DNA from: Alloascoidea hylecoeti
Taxonomy: Eukaryota
DNA length: 64,000 nt
Direction: 5' to 3'
NCBI GenBank assembly: GCA_001600815.1
Contig: BCKZ01000014.1
Span: 1 to 64,000 of the forward strand
The notes below the pieces were generated by a model. The model saw nothing but the letters and a program-made list of their open reading frames with translations, made no database searches and had not been told where the DNA came from. Made by a program: the position numbers and the translations under genes. Numbering within the stretch: position 1 is the stretch's first letter; the number at the start of each line of letters is the position of its first letter. This document shows, one piece after another, positions 3,381-52,014 of this stretch.

Positions 3381-5283
3381 AAGGTGTGTGCACCCTGCAT
3401 GGTCTTGATGTTTTCTTGGCTGAGGGAAACACATCTCCAAAATTTATATGTATGTAGCGCGTAAAACTTACTCTCTTCTTAAACCATGAAAAGCATGTGT
3501 GGTCAATTCACAGAGCTTTTAATGTCAATGGAAAAGATGATGACTCAAATGTAAGACTCAACGTATGGAGGGGCGAACGTGTAGGTTAAATGAGTTTGTG
3601 ATCTGCCTACAATTGCAAACATGAAGAGGACATTCGCAAAGAAGTTAACTGGCGATTTGTAAGTACTTGGGCTCTTACCAGTACGTACATTTGAATCTAG
3701 TTTCCTAACTCCTTATAATAACATATACTTGATCCGTGTAATATGTGCTATATTTCCACATCAATTAGGAGAGATGTCAACCTGGTAATATTTTTCAATT
3801 GATTCTATAACGCTCATATTCATTAAATTTACGTTTTTCCAACCCGAAATATAGCTCTGCATAGCGAGAGTAGCTATGAGAAATGAAATTGATTATGGCA
3901 AATTTCTTGTAACTGAGTCTTACAATTATAATTTTAATATTAATTAATTGTAATCATAATAGGAAAAAAAAAGAGTAAAATTACTTATAATTAGGTAAAT
4001 TTACGTTTGAGACAGCAACATCTTGTGCAGTTGATAGAGTAATTTGCATTGGAGTTCCTTTACTTTTTGAAAAGAATTTTCATAATCAGTATAATTTCCT
4101 CTGAAATAAAAAGAAGAAGTACCTTCTAAAATGGTTTTTAATTATTGCTTGAAATAGGACCACAAACTTCAACAGCTCTAACTTCAGCTCTTAAAGAAAC
4201 AATATCTTTTAAAGGTTCAGCACCAGGAGCCATACTAAAACAATTTGATAGACGAGACTAGTATTAAATAGAATAGAATAGTTAATTTTATAACCGTATT
4301 GGCAGCATATTTAATTATAACTCTAGCCATTAATGTTTGAGATAGTATATTTACGTACTGATTTGTTGGGGTCACAACATCGTAGTTGCGATGCTAACAA
4401 AGGGTTCAACTATGTCTTCAGAAACTTTACAAATAGTATTGTCTGATTAATGTTAATGTTTTGCAAGGTTTAAGGATTTCTTATCTTTCTCCTGAACAAA
4501 TATATTCAATATATAGAGTTACTGGAATGAAAATAAAAGAAGTTCAGTTAAATATGCAGGAACATATAATCAAAGATCATCATTCGCCTATTTATCGAAT
4601 ACCCTGAACGGGTTCTTAAATAAACTTAATTAGAAATCTGAACCCCACCTATCAGAAAGAGAAAGATACTGAAGCCTATGTTATTAAATGAATTCGAAGT
4701 TGTAGTTTTATTAAACATCATTCAAAAGTGGGAAATCATGCCTATTTCTGGTATCAACTCAAACTTCACTTTCAAGTATTGTTGACGATATTATTTAGAC
4801 AAATGTAAAGAAGGAATTTTCAAAAGAAAATTTTTACTTATTTTTCTTTCCATCGTGTTCAAATATATAGTATAATACATATAATACCGTACACTTTTCT
4901 CACTTGCGCGTAGAATACATGAATGACGGTTGTCCTCAGCTGAAATGTGGTGTTCCCATATTAACCTTTATAATTTAAACGTTAACCGATATAAATTATA
5001 ATCACTCGTAAGGTAAAATTATAATGCGTATGTATATTGTTGAGCTTGTAAAATAGTTTATATTAAACCCAAACACTATAAAACTAGAGAAAAGAAAATT
5101 AAAGAGAGAAGACTGAACACTTCGGCTACTCTAGAATACCAACGTTAACTAAATCACAGCTAGAGTCTACTTATTGAGAAATTTACTAGCGAGCAATTTC
5201 TGTACAGAGATGGGAATTTATAAGATTTGCAACGTCATAAAATTGATAATCTAAACAATATCCTAGCTTATTATATCCTATAT

Positions 5284-29277: not shown

Positions 29278-29631
29278 CTTAATGATATAGATGCGGTTGT
29301 GCGGATTCCGTCAAAATGATAGGAGCACTTGTAGATGGAAGAGGAATCAAAACACAAAAAGAGATATTCAAATCTAGCAGAATCTAACGAATACAGCCAT
29401 AAATTATATAGGTGATCATAAAAGCACACAAATCTATATTTACAATATTGTAAAACATAACTAACTATAAGTATAATACAGAATATAAATTAATATCTCC
29501 ATTTAACAAGTAACAATCAACCTCAACCACTTTAAAGTGGTGAAGTGAATATATCCAACTGAAACACCCATACATCTAAATGTTTTTGAAAAAAAAAGAA
29601 GTTTAAACATAAACTGATATTGTTTCAAAAA

Positions 29632-30900: not shown

Positions 30901-31720
30901 ATGTCCGAATCTCCATCTTGGTACAAAAGTCTCACGAATCCAACAATAAAGTATGATACATCAAATAATATTTTAATCAACCTTACTAATTGATATTTGT
31001 TAGATATCTAAACATCAATCAAGTTACACCTCCACCGGGCTTCGATTCCTCCAGTTCAGTATGTTATTACATTTATCAAAATATGAAATACAATAATTAA
31101 CATTCAACAACAGACCGGATCATCCACCAAGAAAGTCATTCGTAATGCAGATCAAGATAATTTAAAAGTCAAGGTACGGAATTCACAATCATTGAATATC
31201 ATTTATCACAAAAATTAATCCATTCATATTTATTACAGAAAGCATGGGAACTTGCCACGAGTCCAGCAAAATCGTAAGTAAATATCATCAAATCTTTAAT
31301 AAGAAGTTGTCTAACATCATTATTAGAATACCAGTGAATGCCTTTATGGCCTACATGACCGGTAATTCCCTTCAAATCATTCCAATTACAATGACACTTA
31401 TGTTATTTACAAATCCTCTTAAACAAATTGCACAAATCCCTACACTTTTTAAAAAATTTGAAACTCCGCAAAATTCATCTGAAATATTCTCAGCTAAATT
31501 AATATTTTTATTATGTCAAATTGGTAGCATGCTTGTTGGTGTTTGGAGATTGCAAAATATGGGATTATTACCAACTACAAGAAGTGATTGGGTAGCTTGG
31601 GAGAATCCAGTTGAAGTATGTGATTTGCAACTGTTTTAACCGATCGATAATTTACTTTACTAACATATATTTACTTTCATTTATTATTGTTAGGTGTTGG
31701 AACATGCGTCTGGAATATAA
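30901..31720 (+). CDS. EMC4: ER membrane protein complex subunit 4 (6 exons; introns 30951-31003, 31059-31113, 31174-31238, 31274-31326, 31616-31693)
   Basis: Spliced translation gives PPPGF, LKVKKAWELATSPAKSIPVNAFMAYMTGNSLQIIPI and MGLLPTTRSDW, hallmark EMC4/TMEM85 motifs. Confidence 0.92.
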
Positions 31721-31831
31721 ATATTCACGTAACTTTAGACCTATAACTAGTATACTATATTATAATTACAATTTAGATCTTTTCATAATAGGAACAACTA
31801 ATCTTTATCTATAGCTAGGCTTTTCAGAATC

Positions 31832-33000
31832 TTAATTTTTAAATTCCTCTTTGGATTCTTCTTTTATCTCTTCTTTAGAGTTTTCAACATTTCCCTCTTC
31901 CCGAGTAGGATTCTTAGATATTTTTATACTACTATTTTGCTCGTAATCTTCCGCACCATTTAGATTTTCGAATGCTTTCTCGCGAATTTTTTCCATATTG
32001 AACCGTTCTAGTGAATCAAAATTATCAACAACACTAATACCAACATTACTCTAAATTTCCCAATTAAGTTAGCATCATATAAACTATAGATTTCCAATTA
32101 GACATACCTTAAAACATTCAACAAGAATTAATTTATCATATTGTTTAAGGTCAACCTTATGGCCATGTTCTCTTCCAACACATGCAACAACAGCTTCAAT
32201 GATATCATCTCTTGTGAATATGCTATGATGCCTCAATTGAGGTCGAATGGCAAACTAAATTGGTAAATATTAGATCAAGTATCATATAAAGTATTAGAGG
32301 TTAAATCTTACCTTTACCGGCTTCTGGTTTTCACCATGAAAATGAGGGGCTAGAATCTTCTTTGCCAGCTTTTGAACTTCTTCAAGTCTAGCCGAACATG
32401 TCCCACTAACAGGTGTCAATCTCTGCGTAAATTTGGTAGGCCAATCCAAGGAATTGAGACTATCGCGACATATTTTTTGAACAAATTCAGCAGGTTCAAT
32501 CGGCCTTCGTGTTCTAATAAACAAAACACATTCACATTCTAGACCAATGACTGAAATAAGATCTTTCTTGGGATCTTTCACATCAGCAGATTTAATTTCA
32601 GCTAATTCCTTATTTATCTGATCTTCTATATTTAAATTATCAACATCTTTTTGGTCATCTTCATCATCGTTCTCATCTGTAGGTTTACTAAGATCGTAGT
32701 ACTCTTCTGCTTTCTATTTCCATAATCAAATTGGTTAACCTTCAAAATCACCATTCAAACTAAATATCCTTTTAATTACGTACTTTTTTAAAAAGCTTTT
32801 CAAGTTCATTGGCACATTGTTTTTCTTTTCTTCTAGGACAAGTAGCATAGATTCCAAACATTCCAGGTTCAACAATTCTGCTACTACTTTTAAACTATCA
32901 GATTCAATTAATTCCAGAACGCTTCCAGACACATAAATATATAATTTATTCTTACTCTTTTACCATTTCCCCCTTGACCTCCGTGTTTTCTTTTACCCAT
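31832..33000 (-). CDS. TAN1: THUMP-domain tRNA acetylation adaptor Tan1 (5 exons)
   Basis: Spliced translation MGKRKHGG...EPGMFGIYATCPRRKEKQC...IEDQINKELAEIK...TKFTQRLTPV...FAIRPQLRHH...HKVDLKQYDKLILVECFKSNVGISVV; four GT-AG introns. Confidence 0.9.
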
Positions 33001-33048: not shown

Positions 33049-33067
33049 AACACCCATACACCCATAC
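33049..33067. promoter_or_regulatory. Rap1-like site(s) ACACCCATACACCCATAC upstream of TAN1; another ACACCCATACAT at ~29564
   Basis: Matches the yeast Rap1/RPG consensus ACACCCATACA; both sites lie 50-70 bp upstream of ATGs. Confidence 0.5.
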
Positions 33068-33362
33068 GAAACAAGCAGCAACCAAATGAGGCAGGAGAAA
33101 AAAGTTAAAAACAGAATAATATAAAAGCCGGCTCCCCCCAATTTTTTGTTTTCTTTTATTTTTTATCTCCCAACAAATAACAGAATGAATAACAGGTTAT
33201 ATAATATTTATTTATACTAACTGAATTTTTCGATAGATTATTATGTTCAAAACTCTTCTACTTATATTATAATACATTTATACCTAGCTTTCTTAATTGA
33301 ATGTCAACTTGCGACCCTACTCTTGGTGAACACGTCACTTTGAACTGGAGTTGCGCAATAAT

Positions 33363-33812
33363 ATCCATTTTCCGTCTGAGATGGGCATGATATACCAATT
33401 TTTACTCACTCAGTAAAATTTGTTAAACTTATTTGTTCCAACAAATAAGTTACATTTGAATAGAACTTATCCTAACGATAGGTTATTCACAACCAACACT
33501 TGAAATAGTCATCAGCTATCCAAGCAGAACACAAAAGACTTACCCTTGATGGTAAGCAACCGACAACATCCATTTCTCGTTTGATATGGGTACGATAAAC
33601 CAATTTTTACTCAGTAAAATTTGATAAACTTATTTATTCCAACAAATAAGCTACATTTGAATAGAACTTATCCTAACGATAGGTTATTCACACCCAACAC
33701 TTGAAATAGTAATTTAGCACACACTTGTGACACTATCCAAGCAGAACACTAAAGACTTACCTTTGGTAAGCAACCAGTATTAGAAAGACTTGACCCACAG
33801 TGGTAAGCATCC
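33363..33812. repeat. Tandem ~205-bp duplication (33363-33561, 33568-33775, partial third copy 33784-33812) built from consecutive stem-loops
   Basis: Near-identical copies, each with TTTTACT/AGTAAAA, CTTATTT.TT/AACAAATAAG, TGAATA..AACTTATC/GATAGGTT-ATTCA and CTTACC/GGTAAG hairpins. Confidence 0.9.
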
Positions 33813-33824
33813 AATCACGGGCCA

Positions 33825-34400
33825 CCACTCTTACATTATAATAAATGGCATTCCGCGCAAGAGAAGCGAGAGATTGAAATCCTTGCAGCTTCTAAATTAC
33901 AATCCACACTAATCCAGATACATGAGTATATCCAATGGATTTAGAGCAACAATGAATGAAAACAAACACCAAACTTGTTTTTCAAACATGAGCAACACTT
34001 AACTGATAATAATATATCAGCTAATTCAAACTATGTATTATTTTTAAAAGAGAACACGAAAAGGGATAGTTCAAGTATTGATGTTTTATTAATGATCTTT
34101 CCAATTACTAATATCTGGAATAATCATCATATTTTTTCTTTCTCAACATTTTAATCACAAAAGCAGCGTCTACAATTGTATTTTACATCTACAGTAATTA
34201 AAGAAATAAGGCTGTACACTATTGAGTATCGTTCATATCCAATATTTTTTGCATATTGTCTTTAATTATCTTGTTAATGACATGTGTTATATTATAATTA
34301 ACTCTGATGATAGGTCTCATGTTTTGATAAAGTGATACCTCATTCTGAACCAGTACATTTTGGATGATAATAATTTTATACAATTTGATAAATTTTTTCA
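33825..34400 (+). mobile_element. Possible decayed non-LTR (L1-clade) retrotransposon ORF2 AP-endonuclease fragment
   Basis: Frameshifted translation SYIIINGIPRKRSERLKSLQLLNYNP / TLIQIHE resembles the APE start (S.NINGL...PDII.IQE). Later, YLVNDMCYIIINSDDR resembles GDFN.V...DR. Several stops. Confidence 0.35.
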
Positions 34401-35104
34401 TTTGTATTGGGTTCATGTATTTTATGGGAGTATTTTGTATAAAAAAGATAAAGGTACATCTTGGTAATTTTGTAATGATACATTTTACGATCCGGGGATT
34501 TCTAAAGCATAAGGTTCTTTTTTTTATGTTTGTTTTTTTCGCTTTTGGTTCAATGATTAATGGTGTTTAATAATGTTTTAACGATCATTTGGAGGTGTTC
34601 TATACTCTTAATTTTTATTTCCTTATGAACCAGTTATGATTTTTTGTATACTACTTCAGTATATGCCAGCTTTTAGGTATGTTTATTTATCTTTTTTTTT
34701 TGTTATTCATTCTGTTTTTTGTTTTATGGCCTTTCTAGGTCTCAATTTACGTGATAAGGATATCGAGTGAATTAAGAATTAGTAAACCATTAAACAATAA
34801 CATTTACTAGCTAATTGTGTATGTGATTATCTATGAATAAGATCTTGAGATTTATTGAAGTAGTAATTATGATTAATTATTCCATTAAAGGATATATGGT
34901 CGAACAATAGGAGGTATTTTTTCATAATCATGATCGATATCGATTTCCAATTATCTCTGTTATCAAGACTCTCTCAATCCGGTAGTTAATACCGTGTGAT
35001 TACTGGGATGTGCATAGATAACGGTTACATAATAAAAAATGGGCTAATATAAACTATAAAGATGTATCCATTATAATTTATCACAGCTATAAAGTTGCAT
35101 TATC

Positions 35105-36292
35105 ATGAAGGATTCTGCTTCTCACTATGAAGCAGCCGGTGCTTTAAAACAGGAACTGCCATCAACTTCACTATTGCCATTGTTGGTGTTTCCAGTTTTC
35201 ATAATTATATATATGGCTGCTGCTTCGGTTTTGAAGCCTCTACTTTCCCCGCAAGTTAATCTAAATTCAAAGACAATCAAAAAAGGAATACTTCACAATG
35301 ATGATTTAGAAGATCCAGTGATAACACCAGTCAATCCATCATTTGATTTTAAAGAAGAAGAACCTATTCCTTATCGTCCATTTAAAAATGGTCCTTATAA
35401 AATGACAATGGGTATTAAAACTTCACCACCAAACGAATGGTTATTAATCGAAAAAACATATAATGAAATTACAAATCTACGTGAAAAAATTGTTCTTGAA
35501 AATCCAAATAATACAATGTTATTTAAACCTGAAGCGTTAGAAGCATTACATGAAACATATATTAAAATGTTTGAATTTATGATAAAAAGATATCCAATGT
35601 ATTTTGAATATGATATTAATGATAATTCAATGATTAGAAATAAAATTAAAAATGAGTTAATACCAAAAGATCCTTCAAAATTAACACCAGATTCTTTAAA
35701 TTTAATTTTAGCTAAAAATTTTGAAGAAGATTATTTAATAATGATATTTGATGAAAAAAAAGATTCATACATTTTAAAAGGTGGTTCATTTGCTTTCCCA
35801 TCTGGTTTTGATCCTGCTGAGAAAGTTGATCTTACATTAAAAGATATTCATGGTCCTGTTCCTATGTACTCAGAGAAACTAGAACTTAGTATGGATAGAT
35901 TTTTTAAAAGATTAAAGGTAAACCAAATGGTTATAAGACAAAATTGGAGTATTCAACCTCATACTCAATTATTTGCGCCTGCTTTAAACCATGCCAGTGA
36001 TGAAAGTGAACTAGGGGAGGTTCTCGACCCAGAAACCATGGATTTCGATAAAGTTTTTATGAGAGTTGAAAGACAAATCTTGACAAGATTACCAAAGACA
36101 AAGGCCTTATTGTTTACAATTAGAACATACTTAACCCCTCTTTCAAAGATACGCGAGGAACCTAGAGCACCCGAACTTATTCAAGCTATAGATGGATTAC
36201 CACCGGTTTTACAGGTTTATAAAAGAAGCGCAGTCTGGGGCCCTGCTGTTAAATCATATCTGAGAGGAGAAACAAATGGACTTGCATCATAA
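35105..36292 (+). CDS. DUF3445 / HRQ-family protein (heme-dependent oxidative N-demethylase alpha-subunit-like)
   Basis: 395 aa; PYRPFKNGPYKMTMGI, FPSGFDPAEK..L..IHGPVP, RQNWSIQ and RVERQILTRLPKTKALLFTIRTY; N-terminal hydrophobic segment. Confidence 0.85.
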   Translation: MKDSASHYEAAGALKQELPSTSLLPLLVFPVFIIIYMAAASVLKPLLSPQVNLNSKTIKKGILHNDDLEDPVITPVNPSFDFKEEEPIPYRPFKNGPYKMTMGIKTSPPNEWLLIEKTYNEITNLREKIVLENPNNTMLFKPEALEALHETYIKMFEFMIKRYPMYFEYDINDNSMIRNKIKNELIPKDPSKLTPDSLNLILAKNFEEDYLIMIFDEKKDSYILKGGSFAFPSGFDPAEKVDLTLKDIHGPVPMYSEKLELSMDRFFKRLKVNQMVIRQNWSIQPHTQLFAPALNHASDESELGEVLDPETMDFDKVFMRVERQILTRLPKTKALLFTIRTYLTPLSKIREEPRAPELIQAIDGLPPVLQVYKRSAVWGPAVKSYLRGETNGLAS

Positions 36293-48155: not shown

Positions 48156-49975
48156 TTTTGTATAATGTTTTTATATTTCGGAATATAATATTTATATTTT
48201 ATTTGGTACTAAGACAAAGAGTAAATACCTTATTTAATTGGGTCAGAGGAGTGATGATTTATATCAAGAAGGTGATGAGCAAATTTAAATGTACATGTAT
48301 TATAAAATGGATCTCTTTAAAATATTTTCACTGCGTAGATACAACTCCCGCTAGGATTAAATACCATTATTGAACTTGTTGCTACCATATTGATTCTTGA
48401 ACCTGTTTCTACCATGTTTGGGCTTATTCACTCAACCCGATTAACCTCTCTTAGATTGCATGGTTTCATTTGACTATTAAGTATCTCATCTAAACTTTGT
48501 AAGTTAAACGAACAAGATAAAGTCGGATTGGAAAATAGAAAGTAATCAATCATAAAATAGAATATTTAGCCCATATACATTCTAATATTTACTATTATAG
48601 TACTATTATTACCGATATATTATGGGTAATCATAAGAATACAAGTATGTAGCACAACTCTGTGACACAACTCTAAAAAATCAAACTCTAAAAAAATTTAC
48701 AGTAACCAATGAGAACGAATTAATTTGAAGAAGAAGAAGAAAAATTAATAAACGTGGGTAACCCAACGGGTACCATCGGGTAGTATTGGTAGCTATCAAT
48801 ATCTGGATAGCTAAATGATATCTCTTCATGGGCGCTTGACAAGCGGTAAGCATCAAAATGGCTGGTATGATACAATGAGATGCAAATAAATAGAGGATAA
48901 GAACAATATTTTGGGGTATTATTTGTGAGTAAAAAACCGAGATTAAGCATCATAGGTCGTTGGGTTTGGGGACATAAGGAATATTAATGGGAAGAAGAAA
49001 AAAGGATTTCTCTACTAGAAAGGATCGTTTTAAGTGAATCGATAAGATTGAAAACGGAAACTTTAAATACTTGAAATTCTTGAATATCCCTTAATATCCT
49101 AGAGAAAAAGATTTTCCTTTATGAATTATTTCTCGCAAACTATCTTTTTAACTGGTAATTAATCTCCACTATAATTTTAAGGAACCTAGCTATATTCTGA
49201 TCCCACTTTATCCAGGGCGTGTGTGCAGGCAATGTTCTATCAATAATAACTGATTATTTTCATTTTGTATTTTATTATTTCATGTTTTTCATTTGGAGGG
49301 TTTAAATGGAACTGAATCTTCATCACTACAATTTCTTTTATCAATGCTCAATGCTCAATGCTAGCTTTATCATGACGATCTGCATATGCATGTCAATATT
49401 TAGAATTTATTTAAAATAACTTAATATATATCCCAACTAACCATAAATATAGCTACACAATTCTTATATTTATCAAAATTTCAGAATATAGTCCGATCTT
49501 TGACGAGATAAAATTCTTTACTTTTTTGAGTAAAAATTGAGGTTTAGCATTGTCACATTTTAAAACTTCAAATGCTTTACCGCGGTTCCAATTCCATTCC
49601 ATAAGGCAGGTAGCGATAACAGGTTCATATGATTCATTGCAAAATTTAATTACACTCGATAAGTAGTTTATAGCAAGCTTGAACGGCTCTCTTTGTTAAC
49701 TACTCCGATTGTTATGACTCGACAAGATTGAATATTGTTTAATGGCTACTGGATCTAAATTGCAAAAAATGTAATACCACTGTATTTATATTTATAATTA
49801 TATATATGTTAAAAATAGGAATAAAATGTTAGATATAAAATTAAAAAATGGAGTATTCAAATACAAGAAAACTATAACCATAGATTGTATATAAAGGACA
49901 TAGTTACGATAATAAAAGGCTGAAGAGATATATTGTCGACATTATTTATTAATCTTAAATATAGATTCATAAGAT

Positions 49976-50597
49976 CTAGACATTTTCTTTATCAGTATTA
50001 TGATTTTTATGATCAACATTTTCTCCATCATCATCACTTTCTTCATCACCTTTTTCATTTTCTTCTTCTTTTTGATTCTCTTTATTTTTGTCTTCAATAT
50101 TATTTACAATTTTCCCTAAGTTTGCTGCAGCCACGGAACCAGTGGTATTTGTAACCACATTTTTTAGTAAAGCAGTACCTGCTTTCTCAGCAACCTTGAT
50201 ACCAATTAATTTTCCACCTTCTACAGTAAGNNNNNNNNNNNNNNNNNNNNNNNNNNNNNNNNNNNNNNNNNNNNNNNNNNNNNNNNNNNNNNNNNNNNNN
50301 NNNNNNNNNNNNNNNNNNNNNNNNNNNNNNNNNNNNNNNNNNNNNNNNNNNNNNNNNNNNNNNNNNNNNNNNNNNNNNNNNNNNNNNNNNNNNNNNNNNN
50401 NNNNNNNNNNNNNNNNNNNNNNNNNNNNNNCCAACAGCAACTGCGCCATCAAGAATAACTGCCGCTGGACAAAAAATATATTCTAAAGCGGTACCAATTA
50501 CCATCCCAACACCCGCAACAGCAACAACATTCTGTTCCGGCATTATAGCACCCGCAATAAAGGAACCGGCGGTTGACAAAATAAATCCAAGTACCAT
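49976..50597 (-). CDS. Glycine-zipper/amphipathic small-protein family, copy 3 (spans a 200-N assembly gap; acidic tail)
   Basis: Sequence on both sides of the gap is nearly identical to copy 4. The corresponding segment in copy 4 is 124 nt, so the apparent frame change is a gap-size artefact. Confidence 0.75.
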
Positions 50598-52014
50598 TTT
50601 TATAAATATATTTCTGAATATAATATGCTGCTTTTTATAATCTTAATGTGATCCAAAACAATGAGAACAAGAAACGTTAATTTTCTATGTTACCATTCTA
50701 GTTAGTTATGCAACTCATATATATCTACTATTGGAGTAATAAATTTAGAGCAAAGAGTAAATACCTTATTAGATTCTTGGGTTGAGCTGATGAAGAAATG
50801 TAGTATAAGTTGGAAACCTCTTTATATATATAGTATACCATAATCCAATTTATAATCATCGGCAATTGATGGCTTCATTAAAACTCTGTGGCCAATGGCT
50901 ACACCGACTATCACCCTTGGACGATGATTAAAAATTATATACATGGACCTATATTCAATTAACTGATAGGAGTTTCCGGATTGAGCAACAAAGATGATAA
51001 TTGAGAATAAAGCTGAAACAATTTTTTCGCGATTCATTGGCTATAACTAACTGATTAAGAATACTCTGGTTTCCGGACTTTGAACTCTGGATTAAATACC
51101 CTAATTGCATGATTTTATATTTACGCATATATTTGTAGGTGTTTGAATTTAAATATAGATAAACCAATTTGTTTATTATTATTATACTCTTTCATCCAGA
51201 CGACTGAAGAGGCCATTAGATCTTCAGAGTTTCAACCTTTACCTTATGTTGCTCTTGTGCCTCTCTCCTGAGTTTAACATTTTGAAAGCCCTGTACCATA
51301 AAGTAATTGAAGCTCCAGTAGAAGTTCATCATTATCTAATACAGACATCTTTTGATATATAAGCCTATATGATTACTTTTTATTTTTCTGTAAGTTATTA
51401 ATAATATAATAACTCCAATTCTATTGAGTCCCGATATTTGTTTGAAATATTAACAAACATAGGAGAATATGAGTATTAATAATGAGATATTCTATCCTGC
51501 AATATGTCTGAATGATTCCTCTTAATTTGGGTGAGATAAGCCATTAATCAAGTTAAGTCGTAGAATCGAATTCGATATAACTGTGACATATATTATTTAT
51601 CTGACCTAATTGCTTTACCAAACCACGACCCTAAAATCTCCAAATTCAATAAAATTGAGTGGTTAAATTTAAAATAATCAAAATATATGATATACGGCAT
51701 CTTATTAACCAATCTTTGCTTTGCTCATGTTCTTGATCATATTCAGTTTATTGTAACATTCTGCATATGCATGATCAATATTAGGAATTAAGGGAGGAGT
51801 GTATGGGAAGTAAACCAGAAAAGATAATTTGCCCACAACCACGAAATTAAAATTAGTATTGGCCGAAATTTAGTCAACGTCTAGATAAAGTGTTTTATAT
51901 TTGGAATAAAAGTTTTAAGTTAAATTAGTAATTAATTGACATCAGTTCGTCGTAGCGTGTAACTCTAACAACAAGATCTTATAAGTAATTTATAACCACC
52001 TGGTGATAGATTCC

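Follow-up and report, generated by a model that had tools for sequence, protein, structure and literature searches.

A tandemly duplicated chain of short hairpins occupies part of a 2.1-kb gene-free gap between TAN1 (ATG at 33000) and a HODM-like gene (from 35105), and raises the question of whether it belongs to an RNA, to the remains of a mobile element, to a regulatory array acting as DNA, or to spacer without function. The window (the whole stretch of DNA analysed, 64 kb) is the start of contig C14 of a genome assembly of 24.8 Mb in 136 contigs, and its DNA has a GC content of about 30%. The organism is a budding yeast, as the closest relatives of the HODM-like downstream gene are Saccharomycotina proteins (50-57% identity). 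The leading reading from the sequence, adopted tentatively, is that the module may represent the 5' hairpin part of an unannotated long RNA.

The hairpin units and their neighbours

The preliminary description had placed the module divergent to TAN1, and this was borne out by a THUMP domain match in the TAN1 exon 32087-32254 (E 1.5e-11). Beyond TAN1 as seen from the module lies EMC4, and the two genes (window 31244-33000) presumably adjoin in S. cerevisiae too. The features of the gap and its borders are as follows.

31832-33000, minus strand: TAN1, THUMP-domain tRNA acetylation adaptor, intron-containing, divergent neighbour of the module (exon frames, 5' splice sites)
33050-33067, no strand: an overlapping pair of Rap1-type sites lying 50 nt before the ATG of TAN1
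33172-33194, plus strand: left arm of a long-range inverted repeat of 23 nt, matched by 34701-34723 (repeat search)
33300-33354, plus strand: step from AT-rich promoter-like DNA (16-24% GC) to 40-46% GC (base composition)
33355-33562, plus strand: unit 1, a chain of local hairpins, H1-H6, joined by linkers rich in A and C (fold against shuffles)
33451-33651, no strand: 201 nt missing from the metagenome X4 contig (12.3 kb), joint ambiguous over 41 nt (joint table)
33560-33776, plus strand: unit 2, an 88% identical copy with the H5 loop 16 nt longer (alignment, fold)
33777-33812, plus strand: incomplete third copy consisting of H6, which differs in its loop and has a 1-nt bulge (repeat alignment)
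34701-34723, plus strand: right arm matching 33172-33194, 3' of the candidate splice site (repeat search)
35105-36292, plus strand: HODM alpha-subunit-like gene, downstream neighbour (PF11927, E 5.6e-83)

From the GC step at 33300-33354 we infer the probable start of a plus-strand transcript.

The duplication of a module of about 205 nt, claimed earlier, is directly observed: two units align at 88% mean column identity and a third copy of the last hairpin follows. The repeat blocks between the units measure 105 nt (95% identity, spacing 201), 49 nt (84% identity, spacing 205) and 33 nt (94% identity, spacing 217), and a 12-mer is present in three copies. Where a chain of five to six hairpins per unit had been described, folding gave six in each, with bulges and internal loops; the unpaired positions of unit 1 on the plus strand are 36 A, 25 C, 19 T and 6 G. 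A perfect inverted repeat reported at 33427-33450 is present as sequence, but its 2-nt loop is unable to close and the fold is an 11-bp stem with a 4-nt loop. The statement that indels fall mostly in loops agreed with the alignment, in which all three inter-unit indels lie in hairpin loops, one of them as a simple 4-nt slippage duplication. A protein-coding or spliced-exon reading of the units was rejected, with stops in all six frames and just one weak intron candidate.

Local folding was compared with shuffled controls, the check named in the preliminary description, and both units beat the shuffles on the plus strand (unit 1, -43.2 kcal/mol, z -4.59; unit 2, z -3.33; 0 of 200 shuffles as good in each case), while the minus strands of units 1 and 2 gave z -1.68 and -1.89, with 12 of 200 shuffles each. 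By sliding scan the folding signal was limited to about 33350-33770. The plus strand of unit 1 ranked first of 606 strand-windows over the 64 kb, in a scan whose tile register was deliberately started at unit 1. Elsewhere in the window, a minus-strand tile at 48747 folds strongly, and about 48300-51800 contains a long inverted repeat whose best arm measures about 200 nt.

The claim of conserved stems did not survive the comparison of the units. Among 51 consensus pairs no compensatory pair was found on either strand, the comparison covering two paralogous units only, 88% identical to each other. Mapped on the plus-strand structure of unit 1, in which 56% of positions are paired, nine substitutions are paired (six pair-breaking) and nine unpaired; on that of unit 2, five are paired (three pair-breaking) and 13 unpaired. 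In the longest stem both substitutions disrupt pairs on the plus strand and yield G.U pairs on the minus strand. G.U pairs favour the plus strand in H1, H4 and H5 and the minus strand in H3 and H6.

Template switching in replication and repair is a source of short inverted repeats. An alternative scarcely less likely than the leading reading is that the module is functionless spacer DNA, in which short-loop inverted repeats arose in this way, spread by tandem duplication and are now decaying; H6 would have been copied three times and then the whole unit, the loop indels would be slippage in hairpin loops or short repeats, and telomerase-like motifs downstream (see below) would be chance matches in AT-rich DNA. 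The lack of compensatory pairs and the six pair-breaking changes among nine stem substitutions are in line with such an origin. So are the nearly equal folding of the module core as single-stranded DNA on the two strands (z -5.85 and -5.16) and the broad empirical distribution of z among the strand-windows (sd 1.34), in which five of the 606 lie at or below -4, one of them the minus strand of unit 2. Against it, all six hairpins are kept in both copies despite 12% divergence, the stems of H6 are the same in three copies of which the loops are entirely different, and, when the structure of unit 2 serves as the reference, 13 of the 18 substitutions fall in unpaired positions. The earlier proposal of an unannotated structured RNA agrees with the leading reading, which is favoured by folding beyond shuffles, stronger on the plus strand, by the bulges, internal loops and A/C-rich linkers of the hairpins, and by the confinement of the indels to loops; no covariation was seen between the units.

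Constancy of the stem sequence itself, beyond pairing, and the position of the module between divergent promoters would also suit a regulatory array acting at the DNA level, in which inverted half-sites (the related ACTTA/TAAG words at both ends of H3, H4 and H6) are bound by a dimeric factor controlling TAN1 or the downstream gene. This is very improbable, as the spacers are variable (3, 6 and 6 nt plus a bulge) and the exact H6-type site, with three occurrences in 24.8 Mb, is too rare for a regulon.

The Rap1-like site to which the preliminary description pointed is real, but in this genome sites of the kind are mostly found a short distance before the start codons of proteins, and it is therefore no pointer to a divergent RNA. 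The 11-mer ACACCCATACA occurs 92 times in the genome against four times for its reversed control, in the window at 29564-29574 and 33050-33060, and 19 of 30 examined sites lie within 120 nt of an ATG-initiated open reading frame of at least 70 codons. Most simply, the sites at 33050-33067 are a promoter element of TAN1 and need no second gene. As a promoter word, ACACCCATACA usually precedes a start codon by 40-120 nt, may have either orientation, and is not restricted to ribosomal-protein genes. The same sites were considered as a telomerase template, their 8-nt repeat being the telomere motif given for two other yeasts; this is unlikely, since the RNA start would fall inside TAN1 and similar words are present at many promoters.

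Copy number and the mobile-element reading

The module was observed at a single locus of the genome by sequence searches, the counts from which are lower bounds. A profile and a covariance model of the module gave no second match in the genomic loci examined (595 kb in the second of these searches), and no homolog was found in this genome or elsewhere: phage and plasmid searches gave no match, viral and metagenome contigs yielded only bare pattern matches, no orthologous locus was detected, TAN1 exon searches and an L1-like ORF2 search alike giving nothing, and the literature searched described no matching element. The RNA runs X7 and X8 held just short unrelated pieces and give no evidence either way.

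In the independent isolate run X3 both units are present, the intervening contig having a depth of 3.4 against about 7.4 beside it. The metagenome X4 contig keeps one chimeric unit. This one-unit form is explained most simply by a pop-out between 41 identical bases, assembly collapse being also possible. The X4 contig otherwise differs at six sites in about 4.3 kb; set against the 12% divergence of the units, this indicates that the module duplication is far older than the strains. The dispensability of one unit in X4 agrees with the spacer-DNA account, while the retention of all hairpins over so long a divergence, in isolates that differ at so few sites, argues against it.

Apart from the locus, the only exact H6-type hairpin is at C20:86520, about 500 nt upstream of a decayed Ty3-like open reading frame. 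As a homolog of the module it was rejected, since its alignment score is 37 against shuffle maxima of 47-52, and the repeat that carries it is unrelated and has three other copies without the hairpin. That a near-identical hairpin stands inside an unrelated repeat indicates that such hairpins can arise locally, as the spacer-DNA explanation supposes. The host repeat is a dispersed non-coding element (L073 about 4036-4205 on C20, L112 on C3, L113 on C26 and L114 on C1), 69-73% identical between copies and with internal duplications; in its C3 copy a LINE-like tail has been inserted that ends in poly(A) and is flanked by a short duplication. Upstream of the decayed Ty3-like element lies an imperfect palindrome of about 150 nt (L073 about 4320-4430; z about -3.5 on both strands).

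The proximity of that hairpin to a Ty3-like relic, the richness of the genome in retroelement relics (59 RVT_1 matches, none of them on C14) and the 23-nt inverted repeat bracketing the region all agree with a mobile or virus-derived relic, namely the leader of an LTR element, the end of a DNA transposon bounded by the inverted repeat, or a captured viral untranslated region. Such a relic is nevertheless decidedly unlikely, given the lack of a second module copy in the genome or in the 595 kb of loci, the low score of the C20 alignment, and the results of the phage, plasmid, viral and metagenome searches. A length of 23 nt was reached in none of 600 block shuffles, so that the repeat exceeds local chance, but 7 of 89 tiles of the window reach this length as well, as do 8 of 91 tiles from elsewhere; no target-site duplication was seen at the repeat. 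As a helix closing the 5' and 3' ends of an RNA the 23-nt repeat is doubtful as well, since its 3' arm lies past the candidate splice site and the X4 variant at 34702 disrupts one of its pairs.

The preliminary description had seen an L1-like endonuclease relic directly downstream and had proposed a UTR, inter-ORF, IRES or ribozyme element of a LINE. A profile of the N-terminal endonuclease block was built from 39 full-length L1-clade ORF2 relatives of the genome's own L1-like reverse transcriptase, and the putative relic, translated through with X at the frame break, scored -1.6 to -0.4 bits with it (rank 1944 of 5370 scored tiles) and -0.1 bits with the full-domain profile. True endonuclease domains that were held out gave a leave-one-out median of 36.8 bits, with 31 of 35 at 19 bits or more. 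Pfam and PDB searches of the supposed relic gave no match, and neither did tblastx against 17 regions bearing reverse transcriptase. With PF03372 and PF14529 no LINE-type endonuclease was found in the genome: the 12 matches to the former, none in the window, were read as host genes from their open reading frames, and the single weak match to the latter is a host gene. With the L1-clade yeast LINEs (Zorro1-3 of C. albicans and Ylli of Y. lipolytica; PMC3956500) the locus shares no more than a frameshifted peptide of 45 residues that resembles, by eye, the N-terminus of an endonuclease; unlike those elements, the locus is single-copy and is without ORF1 upstream, reverse transcriptase downstream or a visible poly(A) end. 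The relic is not supported by its profile score, and the LINE branch fell with the single-locus status, the negative endonuclease test and the lack of an Rfam ribozyme; a LINE inter-ORF or IRES element, as one form of the mobile relic, is extremely improbable.

Two groups of sequences were noted in the course of these searches. On C19 (L067, about 290000-292000) a 5'-truncated L1-like ORF2 relic begins about 130 nt from an apparent tRNA gene. Five related genes of the endonuclease/exonuclease/phosphatase family (L010, L011, L012, L014 and L015) encode proteins of about 300-340 aa; three of them lie within 17 kb on C26, and some of the N-termini are signal-peptide-like.

That the module matches no snRNA, snoRNA or ribozyme core, as stated earlier, was upheld by Rfam, in which no family reached its gathering score, the best E being 0.25 and all matches lying 14 or more bits below threshold. 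Local hairpins are common to the module and the small RNAs of Rfam (snRNA, snoRNA, ribozymes, SRP, RNase P/MRP). Hammerhead, H/ACA, C/D and U1-like readings were rejected, since on comparison by eye none fitted the motifs and overall layout of these RNAs and Rfam was blank. Unit 1 carries a CUGAUGA loop on its minus strand that unit 2 lacks. Matches to bacterial-type terminators at H6 on the minus strand are irrelevant in yeast.

Telomerase-RNA-like features downstream

Downstream of the hairpins on the plus strand, a set of elements was observed in the order known for yeast telomerase RNAs, i.e., boundary element, template, CS2, pseudoknot, Sm site and splice site (PMC6746865; PMC3851723).

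33709-33900, plus strand: candidate template-boundary helix, 9 bp, 33709-33717 with 33892-33900 (in the local MFE)
33901-33916, plus strand: candidate template, 16 nt, C-rich, 1.6 copies of a 10-nt repeat (repeat search)
33954-33958, plus strand: CS2-like word GAATG (motif from PMC3851723; common, about 1 per kb)
34074-34127, plus strand: candidate pseudoknot, compact and of the H type, loop 1 containing a U4 run (pattern search)
34639-34682, plus strand: Sm-like ATTTTTTG followed by the 5' splice site GTATGT (pattern search)

The candidate template starts directly after the 9-bp boundary helix, has a 6-nt terminal repeat and is found nowhere else in the assembly. In telomerase RNAs of the budding-yeast type, the template is complementary to about 1.5 telomeric repeats of its own organism. 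It predicts a telomere G-strand repeat TTAGTGTGGA, which would be identical at 7 of 10 positions to the repeat given for Y. lipolytica in PMC7857110; a 10-nt TTAG..GG repeat of this kind resembles the repeats of Yarrowia-clade TERs. In the contig ends and small contigs listed, which take in C38 at one of its ends and a few of the small contigs in part, no telomeric array was found. A telomere-repeat record for this yeast was found neither in the literature searched nor in the supplement of PMC10767889, and supplements such as that of PMC12449055 may give one. An internal GC-rich tandem array of a 14-nt repeat (5.6 copies; L304 9029-9106 on C50) lies away from the contig end.

The 5' strand of the boundary helix lies in the H5 loop of unit 2, is perfect only in that unit and is retained in the one-unit form. 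The helix has a pair probability of 0.3 locally and of 0.01-0.04 in whole-length folds, and a boundary-like helix stands beside 120 of 5975 control candidates (2.0%). For the Est1 arm, the strict CS2a (CUUCA-A-GG) was not found at the locus and the putative arm folds with z -1.02; the CS2/CS2a motifs were taken from the Candida-type RNAs of PMC3851723. The pseudoknot pattern, defined after the site was seen, has its sole match in 33172-34900 here and occurs in controls at 0.049 per kb (0.014 with GAT); the spacer of its loop is 3 nt rather than the 0-2 nt of the strict CS3 consensus AKUN0-2GAU, which accompanies U-A.U triples in telomerase pseudoknots, and stem 2 has two mismatches. The cassette of ATTTTTTG and GTATGT is the only one in the 64-kb window, and eight were found in 1.0 Mb of strand-bases. 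The cassette departs from the strict Sm consensus AU5-6GR, and no TACTAAC follows closely, the nearest CTRAY being about 130 nt past the candidate splice site. The putative RNA may have its 3' end near 34676, as we infer from this cassette.

Other tests gave less. A search of the genome with RF02462 gave no match, the control search being uninformative. The three-way junction (L1=0, L2=A, L3=GU, as in PMC2094081) was the one telomerase criterion fixed beforehand; four overlapping weak AU-rich matches were obtained at about 34403-34476, and such matches occur in 23 of 98 control windows. With all stems of 5 bp or more, the junction was found 0 times here against 5 of 98 controls. The core-enclosing helix has a probability of 0.0. 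The plus strand of 33165-34760 beats 25 of 25 block shuffles, much of which is due to the 23-nt inverted repeat together with the module. In the 3' two-thirds, folding did not exceed that of shuffled sequence (33800-34760, z +1.38; 34180-34660, z +0.04).

Combinations of features were then counted over 6224 template-like candidates in 1.28 Mb of strand-bases, 210 of which have a TTAG..GG-type repeat. Only the site at 33901-33916 (listed twice, with two periods) combines all four of the TTAG..GG repeat, the boundary-like helix, the CS2 word and the Sm and splice-site cassette; all telomerase criteria but the three-way junction were set after the site was seen, so that the control rates overstate the case. 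For the spacer-DNA explanation, this ordered set of motifs would have to be coincidence.

Among the long RNAs that the leading reading allows, the telomerase RNA of this yeast is the likelier identity, though taken by itself somewhat unlikely, and another long RNA that is not telomerase RNA is unlikely. The feature order and spacing of the candidate are similar to those of the H. polymorpha telomerase RNA of PMC3851723. Like the budding-yeast telomerase RNAs, namely TLC1 of S. cerevisiae, TER1 of K. lactis and Candida, TER of H. polymorpha and the TERs of the Yarrowia clade (PMC3603654, PMC2094081, PMC4993307 and PMC4299874), the candidate would be single-copy, intergenic and 1.2-1.4 kb long; this length also agrees with the usual size of more than 1000 nt stated in PMC6115765. 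Unlike the known budding-yeast telomerase RNAs, it would begin with short local hairpins strung together in a unit that is present once or twice in tandem, and no paper on a telomerase RNA with such a 5' hairpin duplication was found in the literature searched. As the CS2/CS2a arm departs from its motif, and the boundary helix, the pseudoknot, the three-way junction and the Sm and splice-site cassette are equivocal, the locus was not filed as a telomerase RNA.

In the model for the telomerase reading, transcription, strand, ends and functional assignments are all predictions. RNA polymerase II would transcribe the plus strand from about 33300 to about 34676, giving an RNA of 1377 nt with two units or 1176 nt with one. 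The hairpins would form a flexible, non-catalytic scaffold arm upstream of a telomerase core, in which the boundary helix and a template of 16 nt, coding for a repeat of 10 nt, would be joined by an Est1-type arm and the pseudoknot. Cleavage in the first splicing step, just past the Sm-like site, would produce the 3' end. Such a scaffold role would allow an old tandem duplication to be tolerated and to pop out between 41 identical bases. The full proposal, a telomerase RNA of a Rap1-bearing yeast with the Yarrowia-like repeat TTAGTGTGGA, a compact pseudoknot without the long insertion seen in other yeasts and a 5' six-hairpin arm in one or two copies among isolates, is rather unlikely.

If true, the scaffold arm varies in copy number in nature, and its one- and two-copy forms among isolates make a natural test of the flexible-scaffold model. 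Telomerase RNAs are unannotated in most Saccharomycotina outside a few families, according to PMC6115765, and this one would add a point on the path from TTAGGG-like to Rap1-bound repeats that is proposed in PMC7857110. If the telomerase reading is wrong, the locus is of minor interest, being palindrome-rich spacer DNA that was duplicated in tandem long ago.

Two Rap1-like genes were identified in the genome, one of 788 aa (L326 754-3120, on C10) and a paralog of 312 aa (L325 1057-1995, on C7), the name resting on a partial Pfam match and on a reading of the protein architecture. The shorter paralog seems to keep little except the DNA-binding part. A divergent promoter on C10 (L002 1500-1530; C10:735794-735820) contains the 8-mer TGTATGGG in about 3.5 tandem copies; this 8-mer is the telomere motif listed for two other yeasts in PMC7857110.
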